Part shown: positions 10,297 through 53,033 of the stretch, piece after piece | How the letters are laid out: every line of letters begins with the position of its first letter | How positions within the stretch are numbered: position 1 is the stretch's first letter | Source of the DNA: Patescibacteria group bacterium | GTDB lineage: Bacteria > Patescibacteriota > Minisyncoccia > Moranbacterales > DUUL01 | Assembly (NCBI GenBank): GCA_034658815.1 | Contig: JAYEFY010000048.1 | Coordinates: 62,020-126,019 of the forward strand | Direction: 5' to 3' | DNA length: 64,000 nt | Program-made: the position numbers and the translations under genes | The notes under the pieces: model-generated | Databases searched by the model: none | The model's input: only the letters and a program-made list of their open reading frames with translations | Told to the model about the DNA's origin: nothing

Positions 10297-11751
10297 ATGG
10301 AAGGGAAATTACGCTTAAGCGATGCGATAGTTTATCTTTGTTTTGGAATATTGGGCGGCGTTTTTTTAGCGTCGCTTTTTGGTATTGCCACGGCGCTTAT
10401 TTCAGGAACAGTATTATGTCTTGGCTGGCTTATTTTTATAAGAAAACATATTTTTGTCGTAAGTATTCTAATTCCGGGATTTGCATTGGGGCTTTTCGGA
10501 ATGAATTTGGAACTTCATTTTATTGGCGCGCAATACCCGGATCATTTTAAGGGATCGGCGGCGGTCATCGGCGATCCGGTAATGAAAAGTGATTATCAGC
10601 GTGTTATTCTTGAACCGATAGACAGTGAAAATTCACACAAGCGGCTAATTGCGTTCACTCCTCTATATCCGCGATTTCAATCACAAGACCGTCTTTATGT
10701 CGAGTGTATATTGAAAAAGCCTGAAAATAAAAACGACGGGTTTGACTATGTCCGTTATCTTGCCAAGGATGGAATATATAGAATTTGCGCCAAAGCTTCT
10801 TTAAAGCCATTAAATAATGGTCAGCGAGCGCATAGCGCGTTCTTATTTGATCTGAAACGAAAAATTGAGAACAGCATTGAAAGATCATTGCCGGAACCGG
10901 AATCGTCATATCTTGCCGGGCTATTGCTGGGTGGAAGCGATAGATTGCCGAAAGACATTGCCGAAGCATTTCGTCTGACCGGAACAACTCACACAGTCGC
11001 GGTGTCCGGACACAATATCACGATCATCGCGGGTGCGATATCAGTATTTCTGTTATTTTGCGGAATGTGGAGAAAGCAGGCATTTTGGTTTTCCGTAATA
11101 GGGATCGTTTCATTTGTATATTGCATCGGCGCTCCATCATCAGCAGTGCGCGCGGCGATCATGGCTATTTGCGTGCTTTGGGCGGCCAAGAACGGACGGC
11201 TTGCAAATTCAGGGAAAGCGCTGCTTTTCGCGGCCACCGCGATGGTTATGTGGTCTCCTCTTATTCTTATCTATGACGTAGGATTTCAATTGTCATTTCT
11301 CGCAACGCTGGGCATTGTATATATCTATGCCCCTTTAGCCGAGAAATTAGATATTTCAAGGGATTTTCTTGAACTTAGATCAATTATCCTCATCACTTTT
11401 TCCGCTCAAATTGCCGTGGCCGGGATTATCATCTACCAATTCGGTGCCTTTTCTCCGTATTCATTGGCAGTAAATTTTATTATTTTGCCGCTGATCCCCG
11501 TCATTATGCTGATTGGATTTATAATGATAGTGCTAAGTTTTGTTTCGATGGCTTTTGCTCAGCCGTTTGCCATCGGAGTGTGGGCGCTGCTTCATTTCGA
11601 AATTGAGACCATTGAATTTTTCTCCCATATTCCATATGTGAACATTGGCATTGAAAACGTGAGTGCCGCATGGCTGGCACTCTATTATATTTTTATTGCC
11701 GGAATTATTATATACTTACAAAAGCCAAGAATGTTATATCCCGAGAAATAA
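10297..11751 (+). CDS. comEC: competence protein ComEC/Rec2 (DUF4131 + competence channel domain)
   Basis: Polytopic membrane protein. LTGTTHTVAVSGHNITIIAG corresponds to the ComEC TGxxHLLAVSG motif. Confidence 0.85.
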   Translation: MEGKLRLSDAIVYLCFGILGGVFLASLFGIATALISGTVLCLGWLIFIRKHIFVVSILIPGFALGLFGMNLELHFIGAQYPDHFKGSAAVIGDPVMKSDYQRVILEPIDSENSHKRLIAFTPLYPRFQSQDRLYVECILKKPENKNDGFDYVRYLAKDGIYRICAKASLKPLNNGQRAHSAFLFDLKRKIENSIERSLPEPESSYLAGLLLGGSDRLPKDIAEAFRLTGTTHTVAVSGHNITIIAGAISVFLLFCGMWRKQAFWFSVIGIVSFVYCIGAPSSAVRAAIMAICVLWAAKNGRLANSGKALLFAATAMVMWSPLILIYDVGFQLSFLATLGIVYIYAPLAEKLDISRDFLELRSIILITFSAQIAVAGIIIYQFGAFSPYSLAVNFIILPLIPVIMLIGFIMIVLSFVSMAFAQPFAIGVWALLHFEIETIEFFSHIPYVNIGIENVSAAWLALYYIFIAGIIIYLQKPRMLYPEK

Positions 11752-11763
11752 AAATATACTAAA

Positions 11764-12630
11764 ATGCATCAGCGCTATAAGCAATTTCTAATATTTTTTA
11801 TTCTGATCCTTTTGCTTCTGCTTGTTGGTTTTGAAACTGTATCTCTTTCCTTCAAAAAACACAATCCACTTGAAGTACACTTTCTGGATATTGGGCAGGG
11901 CGATGCCACGCTTGTTCAATATCTTGGGTCATATCAGATCCTTATCGACGGAGGGCCGAATGGCAAAAAACTTTTGTCCGAATTGTCGAAAGTTATGCCG
12001 GCCACTGATCGCACGATCGAGATCGTAATTATGACGCATCCCGATAAAGATCATTTTGGCGGGTTGATCGATGCCATGAAAGCATATTCGGTAAAAATTG
12101 TTTTGTGCAATGGGCAGGAAGCGGATACGGAGATTTTCAGACAATATAAAAAAGTTATTGAAGAACAAGAGATAAAAGAATATACGTTGGGCGAAGGATC
12201 GAAAATATCTATTGGAAAAAAACTTGATCTGAGAAGTTTTAACCCCGATGTTATTGTGTCATCGAAAAGTGACAGAAATGAACACTCGATCGTGATAAGG
12301 ATGGACTATGGAGAAAATTCATTTCTTTTTACCGGTGACGCGGATTCCAGATCCGAAGCGGATATGTTAGAAGACCAAGAGGATGTTAATGTTGACTGGC
12401 TCAAAGTGGGGCATCACGGATCAAAACATTCAACAACAGAGAATTTTATCAAGAAAGTAACTCCGGAGTACGCGATCATTTCCTGCGGAAAGAATAATCG
12501 TTATGGCCATCCGCATGAGGATGTTCTTGGGCGACTGCGTTCACGCGATGTGGAAGTATTAAGGACTGACACGGTAGGGACGATCTTGGTGGAATGCTTC
12601 GATTCTCGAAGTAAATGTTCGGTGAGATGA
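11764..12630 (+). CDS. MBL-fold metallo-hydrolase, ComEC C-terminal domain encoded as a separate gene
   Basis: HFLDIGQGDATLV, MTHPDKDHFGG, VGHHGSKHS. N-terminal TM anchor. Confidence 0.8.
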   Translation: MHQRYKQFLIFFILILLLLLVGFETVSLSFKKHNPLEVHFLDIGQGDATLVQYLGSYQILIDGGPNGKKLLSELSKVMPATDRTIEIVIMTHPDKDHFGGLIDAMKAYSVKIVLCNGQEADTEIFRQYKKVIEEQEIKEYTLGEGSKISIGKKLDLRSFNPDVIVSSKSDRNEHSIVIRMDYGENSFLFTGDADSRSEADMLEDQEDVNVDWLKVGHHGSKHSTTENFIKKVTPEYAIISCGKNNRYGHPHEDVLGRLRSRDVEVLRTDTVGTILVECFDSRSKCSVR

Positions 12631-17863: not shown

Positions 17864-18287
17864 AGTCACAAATGCCACTTCAAGCAGGGTGCCTTTGTCG
17901 TTTTCGCAGTGTACCGCAGACGGATGCGTCCAAATAATAAAAGAAGAAAATTTTTTGTTTTTGCCCGCTAATATCATAATAAGCATTGCCTTTGTCGGCG
18001 AAAAAACAATTAAAGAACTGAATAATCGTTATAGAAGAAAGAACCGAGTGACTGATATCTTGTCGTTTTGTTATGAAAAAAAAGATGATACAATAGCGGG
18101 TGAACTGTTATTGTGCTGGCCGGTGATCAGAAGATACGCGCACGCGGATAAAAAAAATGAAAAAGATGAATTAAGAAAAAATATTGTTCACGGATTACTT
18201 CATGTATTTGGTTTTGAGCATAGCAAGATGATGTTTTCGTTGCAAGATGTTATAATAGAGAGGCTAAGTAAAAGATCTATTTCCTAA
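17850..18287 (+). CDS. ybeY: rRNA maturation endoribonuclease YbeY
   Basis: HGLLHVFGFEH zinc-binding motif. Start taken at the ATG at 17850 (the track ORF begins upstream at 17799), overlapping the yqeY stop by 14 nt. Confidence 0.8.
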   Translation: MNTIEVTNATSSRVPLSFSQCTADGCVQIIKEENFLFLPANIIISIAFVGEKTIKELNNRYRRKNRVTDILSFCYEKKDDTIAGELLLCWPVIRRYAHADKKNEKDELRKNIVHGLLHVFGFEHSKMMFSLQDVIIERLSKRSIS

Positions 18288-18350
18288 TTTTTGCCAGCGC
18301 TTCGCTCTACCTGCCCTGCCTATTGGCAGGCAGGGAGCTAGCTTGGAAAC
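18287..18350 (+). repeat. GC-rich modular intergenic repeat, family 2 copy (upstream of dgkA)
   Basis: aatttttgccagcgc...cctgccctgcc-tatt-ggcaggcagg hairpin...gagctagcttggaaac, ending 20 nt before the ATG. Confidence 0.45.
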
Positions 18351-18370: not shown

Positions 18371-18727
18371 ATGGGTAGTATTAAAAAATTGATCAAAAGC
18401 CTCAGCCATGCGTTTAGCGGATTCGGGTTTATACTGCGAAGAGAGCAAAATATGAAAATTGAGCTTATTGCCGCAGCGCTTGTAATAATCGCCATGATCA
18501 TTACTCAAGTGCGGACATGGGAAGCAGTTGTCTTGACGATCATGATATCCGCGGTATTGATACTTGAAACACTTAACACCGCTCTTGAACAATTTATAAA
18601 TATGCTTAAACCCCGCGTTCATCCCAAAGCGAAGATCCTTAAAGATCTTATGGCTGCTGCTGTGTTTCTTGCTTCGATTACCGCCGCGGTTGTTGGCATA
18701 TTAATTTTTTTACCATATATTGTATAG
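18371..18727 (+). CDS. dgkA: diacylglycerol kinase (prokaryotic DgkA family)
   Basis: 3 TM helices, ETLNTALE motif. Confidence 0.8.
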   Translation: MGSIKKLIKSLSHAFSGFGFILRREQNMKIELIAAALVIIAMIITQVRTWEAVVLTIMISAVLILETLNTALEQFINMLKPRVHPKAKILKDLMAAAVFLASITAAVVGILIFLPYIV

Positions 18728-18866
18728 TTTTTTCAATGCAATCAATTGAATGAGAAGCGGCATTTTTCTGAAAGGAAGAAAGATATAACGAGATCATTCT
18801 TAAACTAATTCCTGCCAAAAATTGTCCCGGGTACTTGAGATCCACAGTCTTAAAAGAAGTTTCATA

Positions 18867-18983
18867 ATTTTTGCTAACGCCCTGCCCTGCCTACTTCTGC
18901 CTACCCGGTAAGCAGGCGCTTGCAAGCAGCGAGGCAACGTTTCGCCTTTCATGAAAGGCGGGGCAGGCAGCTAGGTTGGGAGC
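18867..18983 (+). repeat. GC-rich modular intergenic repeat, family 2 long copy
   Basis: aatttttgctaacgccctgccctgcc...internal hairpins (cgcttgc-aa-gcagcg, gcctttc-atg-aaaggc)...ggcggggcaggcagctaggttgggagc. Runs into the putative start of the LTD protein. Confidence 0.45.
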
Positions 18984-21246
18984 AGTGCCAATAAGAAATA
19001 AGAATAAAAATAAGAATTTGCGCCAGCCAGTACTTTTTTGCGCACTGGCCTGTTTTTGTTTTGGAGCCGCTTTTCTTGTTTTGAATGCAAATGCTGGTGA
19101 AATAAATGTTGGAAATGCTGTGAAGCATGTTGTAGCAGACGATAATATTTTGAATGACGGCAATGAGAAAGAAAATGAAAAGAATGAGAAGGGCAAAAAT
19201 AGTGAAGTTGAAAACACTCAAGGGATGAAAAAGGAAAAAGAAGATAATGAAGCTGAAGAAACTTCAGAAAAAAAAGGAGAAAAGAAAAATGAAATAAAAA
19301 TAGAAGAAAAAAACACAGGAGAAAAAAATCCGGAAACGGGCAAAAATAGTGAAGAAGTCAAAGATGGGCAGGGAGAGGCGAAAAATGTTGAAAAAGGAAC
19401 AGTTAGAGAAAAAAATAAAAGCACAGTAAAAAGGTTAAATGAAGGAAGTAGAAATGAGATTCCGGAAAAGGATGAAAAGGAGAAAGAAGGTGAAGGGAGA
19501 ATGATTGGATTGGTAATTAATGAAATTATGCTTGGCGATGGGAAAAGCTCAAAGAATGAATTTATTGAGCTTTACAATTTTTCAAACAAGAAAATTGATC
19601 TAGACGGCTTTTCATTGAAAAAAAGAACAAAAAGCGGCAGAGAAAGTAATTTGGTAAGTTCCGCAAAATTTTCGGGCAGTATTCAAGCAAGAGGATTTTT
19701 TGTGATTGCTCATCCAAATTATGCAGAAGCCATCAATGCGGATTTAAGATATTCAGGAGCCTCTTATTCAATTTCAAGGAATAATTCGATTTTTTTACGC
19801 AACTCGGACAAGGAAACCATTGATGTTTTGGGATGGGGAGAATGTTCGGGAGCCTGCGTCAAAGACGCTATTTGCAAAAGCAATCCCCCCAATGGACAAA
19901 GTTTAAGCAGAAAAGGATCAAACAAGCCTAAAAGTGAAAATGCCGAAGAGTTTGAAATTACCAGCATTGTAACGCCGGGAGAAAAGAACATTTTTTCAAG
20001 CAGAGTTAAATATCCTAAAGACATTTTCCTTAATGAGATTCTGCCTAATCCTGACGGCAGGGATAAAAATTCCGAGTGGGTTGAACTGCGAAACGAAAAT
20101 AAAAAAGAAATTTCACTAGACAGATGGAGCATTCAAAATCGCTCGGGGAAAAGATTCAAATTAGAAGATCTTACAATAAAACCCAAAGAACTGAGAGTCA
20201 TTTTTTTGAAAAACACCAGTTTTGTAATTCGTAATTCAAAAGAGAATTTACAGCTTATTGATCCGGCAGGAAATATTGTTGATGTTGTTGAGATCAAAGG
20301 ATCCGCGCCTTCCGGAATTTCTTATGGTTGGAGTACAGAAAGAGGATGGAGCTGGAACAGAAAAATTTCACCGGGCTCTTCCAATGTCATAAACAAACTG
20401 CCAAAAATCCACGTTAAAAAACAAAAAAAGATTTATAAAGATACTTATGCCGTGTTTGACGCGTCCAAAACAAAAGATGAAAATGGCGATAAGCTTAAAT
20501 TTCGCTGGGATTTTGGAGATGAGCATCGGAGTTATTTGAAAGAAACAAGACATAAATACGCCGAAACAGGAACATTCCACGTGTCCCTGGAAGTCAATGA
20601 CGGATATGAGATGGCGAGTAAGCATTTTAAAATTCGTGTAAGAAAATATCCCCGTTATAATTTACAAATAGTTCGGCTCATTCCAAATCCATCCGGATCT
20701 GATAGGGGCAATGAGTCAGTAATAATACGAAACAATACAAGAAAGAAAATAAATTTATGCGGATACTATGTTGCGACAGGAAGGAATAAAAGGATGAGCT
20801 TAAGGCATCCGATATATGATGATTTTATTATTGGTTCACGCAAAGAGAAGTCATTAAAGAATAGCGATATTTGTAAATTTTCACTCTATAATACAAAAGG
20901 AGCTGTTGTGCTTCTTGCTCCCGACGGAAGCAGAATAGATTCGGTGAAATATCAAAAAGATAAAATAGGCGACGATGACATTTATTTTAAAAATGATGAT
21001 AATACATGGGAATGGATTGAAGCAAAAGACGGTTCCTCAAAGGCAAACGCGGTTGCTGTTATTGATAAAAAGACCGAAGAAATTCAACAACAATTCCAAT
21101 GGTACAGGGTAACTAGGAATGAAAAACTGACAATATGTGAAACGGGCAGAAAACAGAAAATTGCAAATTGGATAAATAAAAGGAAAACGTGGCTTCAATA
21201 TTTAGAAAAAATTCTCAAAACACAGATTTTTGTTTTTGACGTGTAA
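18976..21246 (+). CDS. secreted protein with three lamin-tail domains (LTD) and a PKD domain
   Basis: Signal-peptide-like N-terminus. INEIMLGDG...EFIELYN, LNEILPNPDGRD..EWVELRN and RLIPNPSGSDRGNESVIIRN are LTD signatures. WDFGDEH...TGTFHVSLEVNDG is a PKD signature. The track start is a TTG and the true start is uncertain. Confidence 0.7.
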   Translation: MGAVPIRNKNKNKNLRQPVLFCALACFCFGAAFLVLNANAGEINVGNAVKHVVADDNILNDGNEKENEKNEKGKNSEVENTQGMKKEKEDNEAEETSEKKGEKKNEIKIEEKNTGEKNPETGKNSEEVKDGQGEAKNVEKGTVREKNKSTVKRLNEGSRNEIPEKDEKEKEGEGRMIGLVINEIMLGDGKSSKNEFIELYNFSNKKIDLDGFSLKKRTKSGRESNLVSSAKFSGSIQARGFFVIAHPNYAEAINADLRYSGASYSISRNNSIFLRNSDKETIDVLGWGECSGACVKDAICKSNPPNGQSLSRKGSNKPKSENAEEFEITSIVTPGEKNIFSSRVKYPKDIFLNEILPNPDGRDKNSEWVELRNENKKEISLDRWSIQNRSGKRFKLEDLTIKPKELRVIFLKNTSFVIRNSKENLQLIDPAGNIVDVVEIKGSAPSGISYGWSTERGWSWNRKISPGSSNVINKLPKIHVKKQKKIYKDTYAVFDASKTKDENGDKLKFRWDFGDEHRSYLKETRHKYAETGTFHVSLEVNDGYEMASKHFKIRVRKYPRYNLQIVRLIPNPSGSDRGNESVIIRNNTRKKINLCGYYVATGRNKRMSLRHPIYDDFIIGSRKEKSLKNSDICKFSLYNTKGAVVLLAPDGSRIDSVKYQKDKIGDDDIYFKNDDNTWEWIEAKDGSSKANAVAVIDKKTEEIQQQFQWYRVTRNEKLTICETGRKQKIANWINKRKTWLQYLEKILKTQIFVFDV

Positions 21247-21330
21247 TTGTGATAAGGTATAATTGTGAGGAATGAAGCTTTTCAATAAAACGCAAAACAC
21301 AAAACAATAACTAATAATAAAAAAACAAAA

Positions 21331-21834
21331 ATGAAAAAAATTCTACTAGCCCTCGTAATAGTGGCGGTTTTTGTTATTATTGTGCTTGGGTTCACAATTA
21401 TGAAAACAAAACAACAAAATCTGCTTAACCAACGATCTTCCAAGCAACAAGAACAGAACAATCAAAGTGAACGTCAAAACAAAAATGATGCCACGAGTGA
21501 GTTTATTAATGGAGTAACGGAATCAAAAGAATTCATTGGAGTAATTGATACAGTTTATGTTCCCAAAGGAAAAGATGTCTGTTTTTTCAAAATTGAAGCT
21601 GATATTATTAATGTTGATGGGCTCAAAGATGTTGATTTTGCACGAAAATCAATGGAATTGCCAATGATAAAGCAGGTATATCGTGTTGCTGTTGATGATA
21701 ACACGAAACTCAAGAATGTTGATAAAAAAGAAGATATTGAATCCGGTAATATGGTAAGAGTGGTGTCCGGCTCAAGTATTTATGACATAAAAAAGTTTAC
21801 TGCTTTAGAAGTCGAAGTTATTGCAGTGCGTTAA
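21331..21834 (+). CDS. hypothetical membrane-anchored protein
   Basis: N-terminal TM helix, Q/N-rich linker, no recognisable motifs. Confidence 0.4.
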   Translation: MKKILLALVIVAVFVIIVLGFTIMKTKQQNLLNQRSSKQQEQNNQSERQNKNDATSEFINGVTESKEFIGVIDTVYVPKGKDVCFFKIEADIINVDGLKDVDFARKSMELPMIKQVYRVAVDDNTKLKNVDKKEDIESGNMVRVVSGSSIYDIKKFTALEVEVIAVR

Positions 21835-21880
21835 ATAATGCGCAAAAACACAATTCTTTATAACTATAAATACGAGATCA

Positions 21881-24800
21881 ATGATTAGATATTCCACTTT
21901 CCATAAATTTACAGGAATCGTAGCTGCGATTTTTGTGCTCGCGGTTATTGGTGTCGCAAAACATACACAGGCGGCAGTTCCTATTATCTCATTCTCTGCT
22001 GATTTGACTGTGATTCCGGTTAATACTTCAACGAATCTTAATTGGGACGTATCAGATGCGGTTTCCTGCACGGCATCCGGATCATGGGGCGGCAATCAGC
22101 CATTGTCAGGTACATATGATACGGGGAATTTGCTAAGCGACGCAACATATGTTTTAACATGCGTGGGCGATTTTGGAGAAACAAATTCAAGCCAAGTAAC
22201 AATTACTGTCGCTGATCCGCCGGAACTGACATTTTTTGCCGACAACACGACTATTCCATATAATACTTCAACTGACTTAAACTGGTCGTCGACTAATGCT
22301 GATTCATGCATTGCTTCCGGAGCATGGTCTGGCGATGTCGGAGTATTCGGAACATATAACACCGGAAATCTTATTTCCTCAAAAACATATACGCTTCAGT
22401 GCGCTGGTCCCGGAGGGACAGCCATGAAATCAGTACAAATTACGATCGAATCGCCGACATTACCGCCGGAACTTGATTTTAGCGCTGACAATTATTTTAT
22501 TGAATATAACGAATCGGTAACTTTACAATGGAGTTCAACGAATACTGATGCTTGTGTTGCTTCAGGGTCATGGTCAGGGGCAAAACCTCTTTCCGGAACG
22601 CAGGGCTCGGGTAATCTTCAGAGTGATAAGAATTATGTATTAACGTGTACCGGGGAAGGAGGGAGTATCACGCGATTTGTGGCAATTGTTGTCGCGCCGC
22701 AAGTTACTGATCCTCCCGAACTTACGTTTACGGCTGACGATCAAGATATAGACTATGGTACGTCAACAACCTTAAATTGGACTTCAATTAATGCGCATAC
22801 CTGCACGGCGTCCGGATCATGGAGCGGCAACCGGCCGTTATCGGGTACATATGATACCGGAGCATTATACGCAACAAAGGCATATACTTTAACTTGCGTA
22901 GGTGATGGTGGAAGCGTTTCGCAAAAGATCACAATTAATGTCGGCGAAAACCCATTTCCTTCGCCGACATTGAGTTTTACTGCCGATAATAATGCGATCC
23001 CATACGATTCTTCAACGAATTTAAATTGGAGTGTGGCAAACGCGACATCTTGCACGGCGTCAAAAGCATGGTCAGGGGCAAAATCGCTTACAGGCAGTGA
23101 AAATACGGGGAATTTAACAAGCGATAAAATATATCGATTAACCTGTACGGGACCGGGCGGCTCAGCAACAAAAGACGTGGCAGTCATAGTCGGTGATCCC
23201 ACTGTTCCGCCGAGTGTTTCCTTTTGGGCTGATGATTATAGCGTGAATTATAATTCCGGGACAGTTGTTAGATGGACGTCTGATGACGCGAATTGGTGCC
23301 AACTTTCATATGGCGCTTCAACGGAAAATGTTGCGCTTGATGGCAGTTACGCGACGGGAAATCTATTTGACAACACAATCTATTCTCTATCATGCGGGAA
23401 CGCGTCCGGAACAACCACAAGAACGCTAACGATTACAGTGAATATGGTTGGACCCGCGCCGACGATTAATTTGTGGGCTGACGAGAATCCGATTGATTAC
23501 GGTTCTTCGACTACTGTTCGCTGGACAACTGCGAATGCCGATGAATGCCAGATGTCCGGTGTCGGCGATGTCTCTGTAAACGGATCAATCGGAACAGGAA
23601 CATTGTATAGTCCGAAAACGTACACATTGTACTGTGTCGGACCCGGAGGGGAAGATGAGGACAGTTTAACGATCAATATTCGTGAAGATACAATTCCTTC
23701 TGATCCGCCTGATCTGTTGTTTTGGGCTGACAGCTATTTGCTTCTGGAAGGAGAAAATACTGACTTGCATTGGATTGCGTCAAATGCTGATTGGTGCCAG
23801 GCTTCATTGGGATGGTCGGGAAGCAAACCAACCAGCGGTGATCAGAATACCGGATCGTTGTATACCACTACCAGTTACAAATTGAAATGTGGAAACATTC
23901 GGGGAAGCGTATCAAAAACGCTTACGATTGAAATTGGAAACTTGCCTGACGTACAGTTGGATTTTTGGGCCGATGAATACAGTGTTCCGAATAATGGCAA
24001 CACAACTTTGCGTTGGAATTCAGCAAACGCGAACTATTGCCGGACTCTTGGAGGTGAATGGGGTTGGAATAACCCCAAGCCGCTTAATGGAACGGAAAAT
24101 ACCGGACCACTTTCGAATTACGCGAATTTATATGTTTTGCAATGCGTAAACTGGCTTTCATCGGAAACGAAGTCCGTAACAATATTTGCGGGTGATCCTC
24201 CTCCAAGCGTGTCATTCTACGCGGCCAGTTATACTATTGGTTATAATACGCCGGCAACACTCTTTTGGAATGCGTTTAATTCCACATATTGTGAAGCCTG
24301 GTCGAATAATCCGGAGGAACTAACCTGGAACGAAAATAACATGGTAGTTTCCGGATCGCAGCAGACAACAAATCTTAGGAGTAATACCAGGTTCTATATT
24401 CGCTGTTATGGTCCCGGCGGGACCATAACGAAAAGATTAACAGTAAGGGTAGCGTCTCCGAACGCTCAAGTTCCGACAATAAGCTTTTGGGCGGATGACT
24501 ATATTGTACCCGAAAACGGATCTACCGTTGTGCATTGGACAAGCCAGAACGCGGATGGATGCAAGGCCATTTCAACTCCTGATGTCGTTGGGTGGAGCGG
24601 AAATAAAACGACAAGCGGAAACAATAACGTAGGGCCATTTATTCAAAATTCGGAACTGCAGCTTATTTGCTGGAACGGGTCAGCGTCCAGTTCAGCGATA
24701 CTTAATATTCAGGTCGGGGAAGGTACGATTGCGAGACCAAGCTTAAGTTTCTGGGCGGATGCTTATTCTTTGGCAGCCGGAGATTCCACGTGGCTTCGCT

Positions 24801-25675
24801 GGAGTGTACTTAACGCTAATGGCGGCACTTGCGTAGCTTCAGGAGACTGGAGCGGCAATAAAAGTACGGGAACAGGCAGTGAAAACACCGGTCCGATAGC
24901 GGTGCCTAAACATTATATTCTCACATGCAGTAATGAAGCAGGAGAAGTCTCGAGCTTTGTTGATATAAACGTAGGAGGACCGGCTGCTCCGCCTACACTG
25001 ACATTTCTTGCTGATGACTATGATATCGAAGACGGACAGGAAGTAATGCTGACATGGACAAGTACCAATGCGGCAAATTGTTTTGCAACCAATGATCCAT
25101 CCGGGCAATGGAGCGGAAGTGTGATGTTAAACGGCAATAAAAATGTTACGCCGCATTTTACGACAACATACGCATTAACGTGTATAGGGGACGGAGGCAG
25201 TATTACGGTAAATGTGCGGGTTTCAGTAGCCAAAGTTATTGTTTGCCCTTCAGATGTACAACTCAAAAAAGGCAGAATCAGGCAGCTTGAGGCGTGGTAC
25301 AAAGAAGATGCTGATATTAATTTCTCATGCGAGAATCTTGCCGGGGCAATGAATGTAACAAGTAAAACCGTTCCGTTTCCAACCAGCTGGTCTACTTCTG
25401 ACAGCAGTCTTGTTTCTCTGCAGGGAACGCCGGGTTTGATCAAAGCAGAGGATTATACTATGGGAACGGTAAATGTGTGTGCGGAATATAAAGAAATTAA
25501 GGGGTGCGCCGGAGTGCAAGTTGTCTTAACATGCTGGCAATGCGAAACTGACGGATCATGCTCTCCCGTTCCCGTTCCGCATGACACATGTCCGGAACCG
25601 TATTTTTCAGATAAAGCGTCATGCCTGCGTGTTTGCGGGTTAAAGTGGGGAAGTTGGAGAGAAGTTACTCCGTAA
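21881..25675 (+). CDS. giant cell-surface protein with ~13 tandem ~90-aa Ig-like repeats, a Big_2-like domain and a Cys-rich C-terminus
   Basis: N-terminal signal/TM. Repeat consensus P.L.F.AD......STNLNW.S.NA..C.ASG.WSG...L.GT..TGNL.....Y.L.C.G.GG. C-terminal ...CWQCETDGSCSP...C...CGL. Confidence 0.75.
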   Translation: MIRYSTFHKFTGIVAAIFVLAVIGVAKHTQAAVPIISFSADLTVIPVNTSTNLNWDVSDAVSCTASGSWGGNQPLSGTYDTGNLLSDATYVLTCVGDFGETNSSQVTITVADPPELTFFADNTTIPYNTSTDLNWSSTNADSCIASGAWSGDVGVFGTYNTGNLISSKTYTLQCAGPGGTAMKSVQITIESPTLPPELDFSADNYFIEYNESVTLQWSSTNTDACVASGSWSGAKPLSGTQGSGNLQSDKNYVLTCTGEGGSITRFVAIVVAPQVTDPPELTFTADDQDIDYGTSTTLNWTSINAHTCTASGSWSGNRPLSGTYDTGALYATKAYTLTCVGDGGSVSQKITINVGENPFPSPTLSFTADNNAIPYDSSTNLNWSVANATSCTASKAWSGAKSLTGSENTGNLTSDKIYRLTCTGPGGSATKDVAVIVGDPTVPPSVSFWADDYSVNYNSGTVVRWTSDDANWCQLSYGASTENVALDGSYATGNLFDNTIYSLSCGNASGTTTRTLTITVNMVGPAPTINLWADENPIDYGSSTTVRWTTANADECQMSGVGDVSVNGSIGTGTLYSPKTYTLYCVGPGGEDEDSLTINIREDTIPSDPPDLLFWADSYLLLEGENTDLHWIASNADWCQASLGWSGSKPTSGDQNTGSLYTTTSYKLKCGNIRGSVSKTLTIEIGNLPDVQLDFWADEYSVPNNGNTTLRWNSANANYCRTLGGEWGWNNPKPLNGTENTGPLSNYANLYVLQCVNWLSSETKSVTIFAGDPPPSVSFYAASYTIGYNTPATLFWNAFNSTYCEAWSNNPEELTWNENNMVVSGSQQTTNLRSNTRFYIRCYGPGGTITKRLTVRVASPNAQVPTISFWADDYIVPENGSTVVHWTSQNADGCKAISTPDVVGWSGNKTTSGNNNVGPFIQNSELQLICWNGSASSSAILNIQVGEGTIARPSLSFWADAYSLAAGDSTWLRWSVLNANGGTCVASGDWSGNKSTGTGSENTGPIAVPKHYILTCSNEAGEVSSFVDINVGGPAAPPTLTFLADDYDIEDGQEVMLTWTSTNAANCFATNDPSGQWSGSVMLNGNKNVTPHFTTTYALTCIGDGGSITVNVRVSVAKVIVCPSDVQLKKGRIRQLEAWYKEDADINFSCENLAGAMNVTSKTVPFPTSWSTSDSSLVSLQGTPGLIKAEDYTMGTVNVCAEYKEIKGCAGVQVVLTCWQCETDGSCSPVPVPHDTCPEPYFSDKASCLRVCGLKWGSWREVTP
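21974..25217 (+). repeat. in-frame tandem coding repeats, ~270-bp period, ~13 units (diverged)
   Basis: Periodic recurrence of ...NW.S.NA..C.ASG.WSG... blocks in the translation. Units are ~40-60% identical. Confidence 0.6.
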
Positions 25676-25711
25676 CAGTCTTGTAAAAACTTTTAGGAAC
25701 AGCCTCCATAA

Positions 25712-25747
25712 AACATAAAACCGGATTTTAATGTCCGGTTTTATGTT
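25712..25747. terminator. bidirectional terminator hairpin between convergent surface-protein gene and efp
   Basis: aacataaaaccgga-ttttaa-tgtccggttttatgtt forms a 14-bp stem flanked by A/T runs on both strands. Confidence 0.6.
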
Positions 25748-25749
25748 AT

Positions 25750-25909
25750 TACCTTGAATTACGAAATGGCTTTTACTGCGGTTTCCGCACGAGCGCGATT
25801 TCATCTTTCAAGCTCAATTTTGGTAGCCCTGCTGCGAAAAATCTCGCTTTCAAGCGAACTCGCGCTCGTGCAAAACCCTTGCTACAAACCCATTTCGTAA
25901 TTCAAGGTT
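25750..25909. repeat. ~160-bp extended imperfect palindrome (19-bp perfect outer arms plus nested inner arms)
   Basis: Outer arms accttgaattacgaaatgg / ccatttcgtaattcaaggt. Inner arms ccgcacgagcgcga / tcgcgctcgtgc. Lies in the efp 3' region. Confidence 0.55.
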
Positions 25910-25926
25910 ATTAGAAATGGATAGAT

Positions 25927-26490
25927 CTAATCGTTCACTCTTTCGGCATATTGGCCTGTCTGTGTATTAATGCGGATTTTATCGCCGGTTTTTACAAATA
26001 GGGGAACATTTATTTTTGCTCCGGTTTCTATGGTAACTTGCTTCGAGCCGCCATCAGTTGTATTGCCTCGAATTGACGGTGGCGCCTCGGTAACTTCAAA
26101 TTCCATTTTTATCGGAAGTTCAATGTTAATTGGGCATTCATCAAAATACAAAATGTCGATCTTTGTTTCTTCTGTCAAGAATTTGGCATTTTCTCCAATT
26201 ACAACCGCGTCAATATCAAACTGTTCGTATGATACGCTGTCCATAAAAAAATATCTGTCATTGTTGCTATAAAGGAATTGGGCTTTTTTGGTTTCGATCA
26301 CAGCCAGTTCGATTTTATCAGCGCCTTGAAAAGTTTTGCTAACACAGGATCCTGTCTTGATGTTTTTCAGTTTTGTCCGCAAAACGGCTCCCGCACGTCC
26401 GGTTTTTGAATGTTGTGAAAATAATACGGCAAAAGGTTCGTCATTCACAATGATCTTTGTTCCGACTTTTATTTTAGTAAGAGAGAGCAT
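25927..26490 (-). CDS. efp: elongation factor P
   Basis: Full-length EF-P similarity, three OB/KOW-like domains, KTGRAGAVLRTKLKN loop. Confidence 0.9.
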   Translation of the reverse strand: MLSLTKIKVGTKIIVNDEPFAVLFSQHSKTGRAGAVLRTKLKNIKTGSCVSKTFQGADKIELAVIETKKAQFLYSNNDRYFFMDSVSYEQFDIDAVVIGENAKFLTEETKIDILYFDECPINIELPIKMEFEVTEAPPSIRGNTTDGGSKQVTIETGAKINVPLFVKTGDKIRINTQTGQYAERVND

Positions 26491-40277: not shown

Positions 40278-40955
40278 ATGATGAATCGGAAGAAAAAAAT
40301 GAAGTATTTGGTTGTTATGGTGGTTATGTTGTTCATGGTCGCGAGTTGCGCGACTACAAGCCATGACCAGTGGTCGAAACAGAAAAAAGGCGCGGTTTGG
40401 GGAACAGCGGGAGGCGCTGCTGCCGGTGCTATTCTTGGCCAAGTAATTGGCGGAGACACGAAAAGCACAGTATTGAGTGCTGTTGCCGGTGCTGCCGTTG
40501 GCGGTCTTGCCGGACACCAAATTGGCGGGTATATGGACCAGCAAGAGCAAGCGTTAAACAACGCGTTTGCCGCGTCAGAAGCGGCTAGTGTCAGGCGGAG
40601 TCGGGACGTATTGATCGCGTGTTTCGAAAGTGATTATATGTTTGATTACGATTCCGCTAAACTTAAGCCTGGAGCTTATACAGAGATCTCACGAGTTACG
40701 CGAGTTCTAAAACAGTATGGCCAAACGCGGCTGATTATTGCCGGACATACCGATAGGGAAGGATCTGAGGCATACAACATGGATCTTTCCGAACGTCGCG
40801 CCGAAAGTGTCGCAGCTGCTCTTGTAAATGAAGGAATACCGGAGCGGAGAATGACGGTGATCGGTTATGGCGAATCCCAACCTATCTCCTCGTCCGATGC
40901 CGTAAACCGGCGGGTTGAGATAATCATCATTCCGATCGAACAGCAACGTGGTTGA
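40278..40955 (+). CDS. OmpA-family lipoprotein (glycine-zipper + OmpA C-terminal peptidoglycan-binding domain)
   Basis: Lipobox VASC, Gly/Ala-zipper segment, OmpA_C motifs (FDYDSAKLKP, IAGHTDREGSEAYNMDLSERRAESV, VIGYGES). Visibly higher GC than neighbours. Confidence 0.8.
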   Translation: MMNRKKKMKYLVVMVVMLFMVASCATTSHDQWSKQKKGAVWGTAGGAAAGAILGQVIGGDTKSTVLSAVAGAAVGGLAGHQIGGYMDQQEQALNNAFAASEAASVRRSRDVLIACFESDYMFDYDSAKLKPGAYTEISRVTRVLKQYGQTRLIIAGHTDREGSEAYNMDLSERRAESVAAALVNEGIPERRMTVIGYGESQPISSSDAVNRRVEIIIIPIEQQRG

Positions 40956-49959: not shown

Positions 49960-51702
49960 ATGAAAGTCGATTCAAAACAACTTCGCGAATTTTTGCTCGA
50001 TTCCGGCCTCATTAGCAAAGAAATTGCTGATGAGGCAGTAAAAAAGGCAAATGCAGGGGGAAATGATCTGGGAAGTGTTCTCTTAGACATGAAGGCGATC
50101 GGCGAAGACGATCTACGGAAAATGTACGCCTATATATTAGGCATACCCTATGTCAGTTTGGAAAAAAAACGGATATCAAAAGACATATTACAATTAATTC
50201 CGGAGCCAATTGCCAGCAAGAATAACATTATTGCTTTCCAAAAAGATGGACAGGAGCTGCGCGTGGCAATGCTCAATCCTGATGATATTCAAACAATTGA
50301 TTTTATTAGAAAAAAAACCGGACTTAAAATTTTAGCTTGCCTTACTTCAAAAAACAGCATCGACACTGTTTTGAAACAGTATAAAAAAAGTCTTCAAGCG
50401 GAATTTGGAGATATTATAAATAAAAGCAGTGAAGAGGCTTCAAGCGATGAAAATCTTGAAAAAATAGCGCAAGATCTTCCAATAATTAAAATTGTTGATA
50501 CCTTGCTTGAACACGCAATTCTTCAACTGGCATCCGATATACATATTGAACCCGATGAAAACGAAGTACATATCCGTTATAGAATAGATGGGATACTGCA
50601 TGATGCGATGACATTGCCTAAGCAAGTTTTACCGGGAATTGTCGCTCGCGTGAAAGTTCTCTCAAACCTTAAACTTGATGAACATCGCGTTCCTCAAGAC
50701 GGAAGATTCAAAATTGAGGAGAATGACAAAAAAATATCATTTCGTGTTTCGATCTTGCCTGTGTTTAACGGAGAAAAGATCGTGATGCGCGTTCTTGATG
50801 AATCATCAAAAGGACTAACGCTGGAAGATATAGGTTTGCGAGGCCGCTCGCTGGAACACGTTCATTCTGTAATAAAAAGGCCAAACGGAATGATCCTGGT
50901 AACCGGTCCAACAGGGAGCGGAAAGACCACAACTTTATATACAACAATGGATATCTTAAATACTCCCGAAGTAAATATTTCAACGATCGAAGATCCAATC
51001 GAATATCGAATGCCAAGAATCAATCAAACACAGGTTAAGTCGAGTGTTGGCATGACATTTGCAAAAGGCCTAAGAGCTCTTTTGCGCCAAGATCCGGATA
51101 TTATTATGATTGGCGAGATTCGAGATGCAGAAACAATGAATATTGCGCTCAATGCGGCCATGACCGGTCATCTTGTACTTTCAACTTTACACACAAACTC
51201 TGCAGCGGCAACAATTCCGCGAATGCTTGATATGAAAGCGGAGGCATTTCTCGTTGCTTCGATAGTTAACGTTATTATTGCGCAGCGTTTAGTGCGAAAG
51301 ATATGTCCTGATTGCAAAACAAAATATTCGCTTGATGAAAATCAGATTGAAAAACTAAGCAAAATGGTCGATTTTAAAAGAATTCTCAAACAACTTGGCA
51401 AATTGAAAGATGCTGAAACGAAAGAAATTCTCCAAATGAATAGTCTTAAGGAAGCGGTTTTCTATAAGGGGAAAGGATGCGAAAGATGTAATAATGAAGG
51501 GTACAAAGGAAGACTTGGAATTTTTGAAGTTCTTGAAGTTTCAGAAGCAATACAGAAACTCATAATTGGCAATGCTACTGCAGCCGAGATAAACAATACG
51601 GCAAGAGAAGAAGGAATGTTTTCTATGTTTGAAGATGGAATTATTAAGGTGTTGCAGGGCACTACAACAATTGAAGAAGTGCTGAGAGTTACAAAGGAAT
51701 AA
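49960..51702 (+). CDS. pilB: type IV pilus assembly ATPase PilB (GspE family)
   Basis: N-terminal T2SSE_N domain, Walker A GPTGSGKTTTLY, His box LVLSTLHTN, tetracysteine CPDC...CERC. Confidence 0.9.
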   Translation: MKVDSKQLREFLLDSGLISKEIADEAVKKANAGGNDLGSVLLDMKAIGEDDLRKMYAYILGIPYVSLEKKRISKDILQLIPEPIASKNNIIAFQKDGQELRVAMLNPDDIQTIDFIRKKTGLKILACLTSKNSIDTVLKQYKKSLQAEFGDIINKSSEEASSDENLEKIAQDLPIIKIVDTLLEHAILQLASDIHIEPDENEVHIRYRIDGILHDAMTLPKQVLPGIVARVKVLSNLKLDEHRVPQDGRFKIEENDKKISFRVSILPVFNGEKIVMRVLDESSKGLTLEDIGLRGRSLEHVHSVIKRPNGMILVTGPTGSGKTTTLYTTMDILNTPEVNISTIEDPIEYRMPRINQTQVKSSVGMTFAKGLRALLRQDPDIIMIGEIRDAETMNIALNAAMTGHLVLSTLHTNSAAATIPRMLDMKAEAFLVASIVNVIIAQRLVRKICPDCKTKYSLDENQIEKLSKMVDFKRILKQLGKLKDAETKEILQMNSLKEAVFYKGKGCERCNNEGYKGRLGIFEVLEVSEAIQKLIIGNATAAEINNTAREEGMFSMFEDGIIKVLQGTTTIEEVLRVTKE

Positions 51703-51752
51703 TAAGAAACTGCTGCCAAATTAACTCCTATCAAAAATTGTTAATTTTATTT

Positions 51753-51805
51753 ACCAAGCTGTTCACGAATAGCAGGCATGGCAGGTAGGAAGCTAGCTTG
51801 ATAAC
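51753..51805 (+). repeat. GC-rich modular intergenic repeat, family 2 short copy (upstream of pilC)
   Basis: ccaagct...agcaggcatggcaggtaggaagctagcttgataac. Contains the perfect palindrome AAGCTAGCTT. Ends 13 nt before the ATG at 51819. Confidence 0.4.
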
Positions 51806-51818
51806 AATCCCAATATTT

Positions 51819-53033
51819 ATGGCAAAATTTAGTTATACTGCCAGAAACAAGGCTGGTAAAATACTGAAAGGTAAAATGGATGCCTCTAATCAGCGAGAAG
51901 TCGCTGAAACATTAAAAAAAGACGGATTTTGGTTGACCGGTGTGCGTGAAATTAAACGAAAGAAAAAGGTCGGATCGTCTTTTATGGATAGGTTTGCAAA
52001 AGTTCCGCTTAAAAATAGAATGATCTTTTGCCGGCATTTGGCTGTAATGATCGGTTCGGGACTCACACTCTCTAAGGCATTAACGATCCTCTCTGTTCAA
52101 GAAAAAAATAAAGTATTGAAAACTGTGTGCGGTAAGTTGGCTGCCGATGTTAAAAGAGGAATATCATTTGCCGATGCTCTTGAAAAATTTCCAAATGTGT
52201 TTAACTCAATCTTTTTTTCCATGGTTAGAATGGGAGAAGTGAGCGGTAGCTTAGAAGAGGTTTTAAATATATTGTCTAACCAGCTGGAAAAAGACCATAA
52301 ACTGCTATCTAAAATTAGAGGTGCAATGGTTTATCCGGCTATTATCATTATTGTCATGTTTGTGATCGGAATTCTGATGATGACATTCGTACTTCCAAAG
52401 ATCACTAAAATTTTCGAAGATTTTGATGCCGAACTGCCCATTATGACACAAATTATAATTAGTACAAGTCATTTTATGGCTGACAACTCTTGGAAAGTGG
52501 TTGGAGGAATGGTGATTACCATTATTGGAATTTGTTTTTTTATGAAGACAGCGATTGGAATAAGAATTTTTCACAAATTCTATATCAAAGTCCCGATTTT
52601 TGGATCAATAGTGGTTAAAGTTAACAGCGCTCGTTTTTCAAGGATATTAAGTTCTCTTTTAAAAAGCGGCACCTCGCTTGTTGACTCGCTGCGCATTACA
52701 TCAGAAACACTTGGCAACTATTATTTCAAACGCGCAGTACTACAAGCGTCTAAGGAGGTGCAGAAAGGAGTAACCTTGTCCAGTATTTTAGAAAGGCACA
52801 ATAATATATTTCCCTATCTTGTTGTTCAAATGATCGGGGTTGGTGAAGAGACAGGGAAAACCGATGCTGTGCTGTTAAAACTTGCTCAATTTTATGAAGA
52901 TGAAGTTGATCAAATAACTAAGAATCTCTCTTCAATTATCGAACCGGTTCTAATGGTAATAATCGGTGCGGCTGTTGGATTTTTTGCAATATCAATTATT
53001 TCTCCAATTTACTCAATTATGGATAGCATGTAA
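51819..53033 (+). CDS. pilC: type IV pilus inner-membrane platform protein PilC (GspF family)
   Basis: Two GspF repeats, 3 TM segments. Start moved to the ATG at 51819 (the track start at 51798 is a TTG inside the repeat). Confidence 0.85.
   Translation: MAKFSYTARNKAGKILKGKMDASNQREVAETLKKDGFWLTGVREIKRKKKVGSSFMDRFAKVPLKNRMIFCRHLAVMIGSGLTLSKALTILSVQEKNKVLKTVCGKLAADVKRGISFADALEKFPNVFNSIFFSMVRMGEVSGSLEEVLNILSNQLEKDHKLLSKIRGAMVYPAIIIIVMFVIGILMMTFVLPKITKIFEDFDAELPIMTQIIISTSHFMADNSWKVVGGMVITIIGICFFMKTAIGIRIFHKFYIKVPIFGSIVVKVNSARFSRILSSLLKSGTSLVDSLRITSETLGNYYFKRAVLQASKEVQKGVTLSSILERHNNIFPYLVVQMIGVGEETGKTDAVLLKLAQFYEDEVDQITKNLSSIIEPVLMVIIGAAVGFFAISIISPIYSIMDSM

Follow-up and report, generated by a model that had tools for sequence, protein, structure and literature searches.

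The locus described here lies in a 64,000 nt stretch of a Patescibacteria group bacterium genome (assembly GCA_034658815.1, contig JAYEFY010000048.1, positions 62,020 to 126,019), referred to below as the window. It holds genes for a secreted protein with lamin-tail domains (LTDs) and a PKD domain (P1), a small membrane protein (P2) and a 1264 amino acid (aa) protein of tandem immunoglobulin (Ig)-like repeats (P3). P2 and P3 are encoded as a conserved gene pair, and are read here as a two-gene envelope cassette of one Patescibacteria clade, in which P3 would form a fixed-length surface rod docked on P2. This reading is tentative, with a probability of roughly 0.4. The original prediction, made from the sequence without database searches, had treated P1, P2 and P3 as one module; it placed the three open reading frames (ORFs) exactly, and all three products do appear extracytoplasmic, but only P2 and P3 travel together, P1 being a clade-limited neighbour. 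The source it proposed was also correct, as P3 is identical to NCBI U9M90_04485, a 'hypothetical protein' of a Patescibacteria metagenome-assembled genome (130.7-kb contig).

P2 and P3 form a conserved gene pair

The features of the pair are as follows.

21236..21263, + strand: best sigma-70-like site, TTGACG-16-TATAAT, just upstream of P2 (11 of 12 positions; consensus match only)
21331..21834, + strand: P2, 167 aa, type II membrane protein (ORF list; hydrophobicity)
21881..25675, + strand: P3, 1264 aa, secreted (ORF list)
21881..21973, + strand: predicted P3 signal peptide, aa 1-31, cut between HTQA and AVP (aligned orthologue N-termini; single hydrophobic segment)
21977..25249, + strand: 13 tandem Ig-like repeats of P3, aa 33-1123, 80-90 aa each, with short Pro-rich linkers
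25244..25528, + strand: divergent Big_2-type Ig-like domain of P3, aa 1122-1216
25529..25654, + strand: six-Cys knot, CWxC..C..C..CxxxC (beta-hairpin and alpha-helix in the model)
25655..25672, + strand: C-terminal motif W-R-E-V-T-P-COOH, with W and E invariant (W138 and E140 of alignment A3)

The contigs fetched for comparison carry P3 orthologues and more distant family members. Each P3-type gene is directly preceded by a gene for a P2 homologue, in the window and in L001/L002, L003, L004/L005, L006, L007, L008 and L012. A hidden Markov model (HMM) of P2, built from six sequences, recovers the unseen L008 and L012 proteins (E 2.5e-67 and 3.3e-15, respectively) and matched nothing else in any fetched locus. 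Four gene neighbourhoods are represented: hisS...efp in the window and L001/L002, and in L008 as far as its short contig shows; SecDF-SpoU-HAD-VanZ/C39_2...KhpA-TrmD in L003, L004 and L006; and a third and fourth with a penicillin-binding protein gene (L007) and an rRNA methyltransferase gene (L012). Because the pairing persists across all four while P1 stays clade-limited, the conserved unit is P2+P3 and not P1+P2+P3. The promoter-like site upstream of P2, a consensus match, is the strongest sigma-70-like site within 18600-26100 and was counted in favour of the pair.

P2 is, as had been proposed, a small membrane protein, with a single pass provided by one N-terminal hydrophobic segment. Its transmembrane helix (aa 4-25) is joined by a polar Q/N/S/E linker to a C-terminal domain of ~100 aa. 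Its homologues (166-175 aa, 23-76% identity) are built alike, with a basic N-terminus, a ~21-residue hydrophobic helix without AxA, a polar linker and the conserved ~100-aa C-terminal domain. No family match to P2 was found in the Pfam and NCBIfam scans, and a search of PDB sequences with the P2 profile was also empty; DUF5666 (PF18914) gave a weak, sub-threshold match in four of eight P2 homologues (best E 0.012). The size of the P2 family is a lower bound, since the homologue search returned five proteins and missed known members.

The deposited NCBI version of P2 (U9M90_04480) starts at an internal Met, is 144 aa long and omits the conserved helix. Because the MKK and transmembrane helix of the 167-aa form are kept in all homologues, that entry probably lacks the membrane anchor.

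In one lineage, seen in two contigs, the P3 gene is tandemly duplicated behind a single P2 (L003, 4127-7960 and 8001-11834; L004, 2111-5953 and 6001-9864), and both copies carry 13 repeats and a W-Q-E tail. A gene fusing VanZ-like and Peptidase_C39_2 domains lies directly upstream of P2 in L003 (2315-3508), L004 (288-1499) and L006 (4096-5304). As a universal processing partner it was rejected, being absent from the window, L001, L007 and L012, and it represents local synteny.

P3 carries a fixed array of 13 Ig-like repeats

P3 is an acidic protein (isoelectric point 4.3), rich in T, S, G and N, with 36 Cys. The AxA/A site immediately before repeat 1 is kept in P3 orthologues. The 13 tandem repeats were present as originally described, with a conserved W, paired Cys and the NA..C.ASG.WSG motif, although the unit is shorter than the ~90 aa given, averaging ~83 aa (range 80-90). 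Mean pairwise identity between the repeats is 38%, with A8, W23, C31, G45 and C62 invariant, and the consensus is PPxLxFxAD..Y.I.YN.ST.L.W.S.NA..C.ASG.WSG...L.G..NTG.L.....Y.L.C.G.GGS....VTI.V..P. Tandem Repeats Finder detected no tandem array in P3 DNA, and the longest DNA repeat was 70 nt at 66-84% identity. Given this divergence at the DNA level, the array is old and a collapsed assembly unlikely, in agreement with the earlier claim.

Exactly 13 HMM-detected repeats are found in all 15 P3 orthologues (40-85% identity), as well as in both tandem paralogues (L003, L004), so that the comparison of repeat number among relatives, which had been put forward as a check, gave a constant value among the orthologues. 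In orthologues of 42% identity, 11-13 of the 13 repeats found their best partner in the window at their own position, with mean scores of 167-200 for same-position repeats versus 103-120 for other positions. By this position-by-position matching of orthologous repeats, the 13-unit array was already present before these lineages diverged, and every unit has stayed distinct. Identity to the orthologues is roughly even over R1-R13, the Big_2 domain and the tail, with no hypervariable end. Two distant proteins with P2 upstream (P0029 and P0199) have ~10 detectable units and a unique N-terminal region of ~210 aa, for a total length much like that of P3 (1192-1276 aa).

Whole P3 matched no Pfam or NCBIfam family at E<=0.1, and the 13 units scanned singly (E<=10) gave one Ig_2 match (E 0.0044) and two weaker stray matches. 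Searched against PDB sequences, the repeat profile reached a best E of 0.38. An AlphaFold model of one repeat, made from a 100-sequence alignment, is a seven-stranded sandwich with a predicted local distance difference test score (pLDDT) of 97; the structural check thus gave the expected Ig-like fold and not disorder. Its Foldseek neighbours, all with modest scores, include the PKD domain of 1l0q (E 1e-3, template modelling score 0.69), the PKD domain of ColG, CD4, Dscam and the HPI surface layer (S-layer) protein. On this model, the P3 repeat has an Ig-like fold outside any sequence family described in Pfam or NCBIfam.

The two invariant cysteines of the repeat are tightly coupled. Among 1080 units from 119 homologous proteins, 1071 have both C31 and C62, eight have neither, and a single unit has one of the two (Fisher p 2e-19). 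In the model, the two residues sit on strands 30-35 and 56-64. Their co-variation suggests a C31-C62 disulfide in each repeat. All 36 Cys of P3 belong to conserved pairs; the repeats account for 26 and the C-terminal part for 10.

The repeat was found in at least 982 proteins, many of which also have apiosidase-like (glycoside hydrolase family 140, GH140), cellulase, collagen-binding-like or fn3 domains. A restriction of the repeat to the Candidate Phyla Radiation (CPR) does not hold, since these hundreds of proteins include some from Pseudomonadota and fusions to glycoside hydrolases and fn3. Many repeat-bearing proteins carry the JGI label 'trimeric autotransporter adhesin'. The P3 repeats also match PHROG 2155 (E 9e-24) and PHROG 29022 (E 1e-14), both annotated as 'virion structural protein'; from the matches to these two virion families, some phages use the same undescribed Ig-like domain. 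The repeat thus represents an abundant Ig-like family with a coupled Cys pair that is in no domain database yet. A profile scan of contigs (alignment A4) found only the contig of the 85%-identity relative.

The C-terminal cassette of P3

The Big_2-like domain and Cys-rich tail assigned to P3 from the sequence were both recovered. Of the two Cys pairs in the domain, C1122/C1150 is invariant and C1200/C1209 clade-specific; judged by profile and modelled fold, the domain appears to be a relative of the Big_2 domains of Lig proteins. The knot that follows has six Cys that are invariant in orthologues (C1218, C1221, C1227, C1237, C1248 and C1252). In the orthologue alignment of the P3 C-terminus (A3), eight Cys are invariant, together with a W and an E near the end. 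A model of this region (pLDDT 88.5) shows a beta-domain followed by a hairpin and helix, while the last dozen residues (..KWGSWREVTP) have a low pLDDT of 56-65. An invariant W and E within a segment of low pLDDT would be expected of a partner-binding peptide.

Proteins with the full C-terminal cassette are rare: clustering at 50% left ~10 representatives from an exhaustive HMM search. A W-x-E-[VIT]-x-[PSL] terminus was present in 22 of the 273 fetched proteins, always behind a Cys-rich module and a Big_2-like domain. The same W-x-E terminus ends three short proteins (P0175, P0245 and P0219) that differ in their N-terminal domain and in their Cys module, CGDG..EECDDG.NNG.CP..C. These three are secreted, and carry GW-rich N-terminal repeats (GWLWGGS..GWIS..GYAWS..IGWI.F) and one or two Big_2-like domains. 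The gene for P0175 (L010, 5001-6209) is followed by a 138-aa ORF without a family match and then by a gene for a Peptidase_S74 protein.

Common means of surface retention were not found in P3. Sortase-type motifs ([LI]Px[TSA][GAN]) are absent from P1, P2 and P3, and Pfam and NCBIfam scans of the three proteins showed no S-layer homology (SLH) or other cell-wall-binding domain. P3 has no lipobox and no C-terminal hydrophobic segment or transmembrane helix, its sole hydrophobic segment being N-terminal.

A surface rod held by P2, and alternatives

In the favoured arrangement, P3 would be exported by Sec and its signal peptide cut right before repeat 1. In the mature protein, 14 Ig-like domains (the 13 repeats plus Big_2), joined by Pro-rich linkers and braced by disulfides, would make up a stiff rod, ~50 nm long if extended (our own estimate, at ~4 nm per domain), that ends in the small knot of six Cys and the flexible tail W-x-E-V-x-P. 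Since P3 is without LPXTG, SLH, lipobox or C-terminal transmembrane helix, retention would be non-covalent, with its C-terminal cassette docking on the extracellular domain of membrane-anchored P2. From the gene pairing and layout of the two proteins, P2 probably holds P3 on the cell surface, and the rod would act as a fixed-length envelope spacer or fibril rather than a repeat-variable adhesin.

Several points weigh against this arrangement. The interaction of P2 and P3 is conjectural, with sequences too few for co-evolution analysis; the signal peptides were judged by eye, and the sub-threshold DUF5666 match is the sole hint to the fold of P2. Anchoring by the C-terminus would leave repeat 1 as the tip, without an obvious ligand-binding head, and the sequence fits equally well with a rod turned the other way round or with P3 set free in the medium. 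Because P0175 has the W-x-E tail and adjoins no P2 homologue, the tail may be a more general signal that is read by something other than P2. Lastly, a family this rare (~10 at 50% clustering) cannot belong to the envelope of Patescibacteria in general.

An adhesin for attachment to a host or to mineral or organic particles is a possible explanation, though on the unlikely side. The Ig array would then project a binding end, either the Big_2 domain with the Cys knot or the N-terminal repeats, and P1 would add further binding. The architecture is like that of tandem-Ig adhesins, Leptospira LigA/LigB match the P3 C-terminal domain best in structure, and a role for P2 as anchor is compatible with it. 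The lineage is also suggestive, being Patescibacteria, and surface adhesins have been reported as essential in cultivated Saccharibacteria (PMC11665869). However, the repeat number is fixed and position-matched, with even conservation and no fast-evolving tip, features more in keeping with a structural rod than with a variable adhesin; Pfam and NCBIfam scans showed no recognisable ligand-binding head, lectin or carbohydrate-binding module; the locus sits amid housekeeping genes with conserved synteny; and this lineage has no known host. The same housekeeping neighbourhood, and the small membrane-anchored partner encoded alongside, would suit an S-layer-like lattice with P3 as canopy and P2 as membrane stalk, by analogy with SlaA/SlaB of Sulfolobales, as would the acidic, T/S/G/N-rich composition of P3 and the archaeal 1l0q, Deinococcus HPI, SbsB/SbsC, EA1 and Sap among the structural neighbours of its domains. 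A lattice is nevertheless quite unlikely, given the 36 Cys of P3 (many cysteines are atypical of bacterial S-layer proteins), the lack of any SLH or other cell-wall-binding domain in the scans, the great rarity of the family, and the layout of 14 domains strung in a line by Pro-rich linkers, which suggests a rod and not a lattice tile.

The chances are similarly slim for a freely secreted scaffold or carbohydrate-associated protein, where the repeat would be a generic spacer, P3 an enzyme-less relative secreted to the medium, and P2 a chaperone or unrelated. This would explain the fusion of the repeat elsewhere to apiosidase-like (GH140), cellulase, collagen-binding-like and fn3 domains, and the lack of an anchor motif in P3 itself, but not the tight P2-P3 pairing across changing neighbourhoods or the conserved C-terminal cassette and tail; moreover, no catalytic or carbohydrate-binding domain was found in P3. 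Derivation from a prophage or phage, with P3 as a virion structural or decoration protein, is extremely unlikely. While the repeats match the two PHROG families and phage tails and capsids often carry Big_2 domains, housekeeping genes flank the locus in a synteny that is kept in relatives, no phage genes are nearby, no relative was found in IMG/VR, and neither P1 nor P2 matches a PHROG. The chromosomal gene context and the IMG/VR result effectively refute a phage origin.

A more specific version of the P2-docked rod is unlikely as it stands: the C-terminal cassette would be an undescribed surface-retention signal of Patescibacteria, read by P2 and replacing sortase/LPXTG or SLH, and the 13-Ig array a molecular ruler by which these ultrasmall bacteria would set a fixed distance between cell and environment or cell and host.

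Comparison with known systems

A close parallel in overall design is LigA/LigB of Leptospira. Like these, P3 is a long, linear array of about a dozen Ig-like domains, secreted and presumably surface-exposed, and its C-terminal Ig domain appears related to the Lig Big_2 domains in both profile and fold. The 13 main repeats differ in not being Big_2, and belong to no Pfam family. Lig proteins are N-terminal lipoproteins of a diderm, whereas the signal peptide of P3 is predicted to be cleaved. P3 is further set apart by its W-x-E tail, the Cys knot before it and the small partner gene dedicated to it.

SasG/Aap, Rib-domain proteins, SiiE and Marinomonas MpIBP are rods of tandem beta-sandwiches with short linkers that set a distance from the cell surface, and by analogy P3 most likely works as a repeat-rod extender of this kind. 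Such extenders are anchored by LPXTG/sortase or retained in a type I secretion system, and their repeat number often varies between strains. P3 differs in lacking LPXTG, in its 13 fixed, position-specific repeats and in the co-varying Cys pair of each repeat. In SlaA/SlaB of Sulfolobales, a large, exported, beta-sandwich-rich protein is encoded beside a small membrane-anchored tether. The likeness is one of analogy, and applies to the proposed relation of P2 and P3, in which tethering by P2 is conjectural; SlaA/SlaB are archaeal, show no sequence or fold relation to P2 and P3, have the opposite gene order, and SlaA forms a lattice where P3 would form a rod.

A tandem-Ig surface protein beside a multi-LTD secreted protein is a known type, and P3 as such is a familiar kind of protein. 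What is new is that P3 is paired with P2, keeps its units fixed at 13, is built of repeats from an undescribed family and has a proposed anchoring end (Cys knot and W-x-E) that had not been described before. To our knowledge, almost nothing is known of the molecular basis of surface building and protein retention in Patescibacteria, though their lifestyle depends on surface contact. The locus provides a small, testable system, with a conserved gene pair, a fixed-length rod and a new Cys-knot/W-x-E end. If P2 is the receptor of the tail, it would represent a new anchoring mechanism and supply a motif for finding other surface proteins; otherwise, P3 simply joins the other uncharacterised surface proteins of the tandem-Ig type.

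The secreted LTD/PKD protein P1

18976..21246, + strand: P1, 756 aa, TTG start; secreted LTD-LTD-PKD-LTD protein, isoelectric point 9.3 (ORF list)
18976..19095, + strand: predicted P1 signal peptide, with a K/R/N-rich n-region, a 19-aa hydrophobic core and a cut between ANA and G (read from the sequence; single Kyte-Doolittle segment)
19096..19500, + strand: low-complexity E/K/N/G-rich linker, aa ~41-175 (E 22%, K 18%, N 13%)
19510..19839, + strand: LTD1, aa 179-288 (PF00932, 56.4 bits, E 4.4e-15)
20014..20295, + strand: LTD2, aa 347-440 (PF00932, 58.7 bits, E 8.8e-16)
20392..20640, + strand: PKD, aa 473-555 (PF18911 PKD_4, 62.5 bits; PF00801, 39.9 bits)
20659..20955, + strand: divergent LTD3, aa 562-660 (PF00932, 28.2 bits, E 2.6e-6; below cutoff when scanned alone)

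The three LTDs and one PKD domain assigned to P1 from the sequence agree with Pfam. LTD1, LTD2 and PKD score above the gathering cutoffs (34.3 bits for LTD, 27 for PKD_4 and 23.5 for PKD), while LTD3 alone falls below; with whole P1 as the query, LTD matched in three stretches including LTD3 (E 1.9e-38, 131.6 bits) and PKD_4 at E 1.8e-15. The view of LTDs as a CPR hallmark, very rare in other bacteria, was wrong, as they are not CPR-specific. The linker (aa ~41-175) had no family match when Pfam was scanned piece by piece, and the LTD region of the ExeM extracellular nuclease, which aligns with LTD1, was the sole NCBIfam echo of P1. P1 resembles other LTD-bearing secreted bacterial proteins (ExeM; multi-LTD proteins, Mans et al. 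2004) in having a signal peptide and LTDs. It differs from the ExeM type in that no nuclease, other hydrolase or any catalytic domain was found in the Pfam and NCBIfam scans.

L001 has a P1 orthologue (43% identity), another lies at the end of L008, and by position L002 probably has one as well, in the form of a cut-off 604-aa ORF upstream of P2. P1 is absent upstream of P2 in L003, L004, L006, L007 and L012. It is a separate secreted protein, adjacent only in the window's own clade and outside the conserved pair.

A direct repeat, TTTCnTAATTTTTGCnAnCGC...CCTGCCCTGCCTA (18280-18322 and 18860-18893), precedes the dgkA-like gene and P1, the copies being 580 nt apart. The copy before P1 runs into a GC-rich, self-complementary leader (CGCCCTGCCCTGCC...GGCGGGGCAGGCAG, 18880-18970) in a genome of ~38% GC. 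This leader folded no more stably than shuffled sequences (z -0.86), and an Rfam scan of the whole window gave no match.

Other genes of the window

The locus is flanked upstream by hisS, HIT, rpsU, yqeY, ybeY and the dgkA-like gene, and downstream by convergent efp, rpsR, ssb and rpsF; this flanking synteny is kept in relatives, and the housekeeping nature of the flanks was counted in favour of the envelope cassette. Elsewhere, the window carries ComEC, FtsK, SecA, FtsH and PilB/PilC-type genes. ComEC is divided between two ORFs, of which the first has Competence and DUF4131 domains and the second an MBL domain, and there is a PilB-like ATPase (T2SSE and MshEN) and a PilC-like T2SSF protein (10297-12630, 49960-53033), so that DNA-uptake and type IV pilus components co-reside with the surface-protein genes. 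At 40278-40955, glycine-zipper and OmpA-family peptidoglycan-binding domains occur in a lipoprotein-like ORF (lipobox ..MVASC, judged by eye), which lies beside integrase/helix-turn-helix-like ORFs; as an envelope protein it is unexpected in a presumed monoderm Patescibacterium and may have been horizontally acquired.

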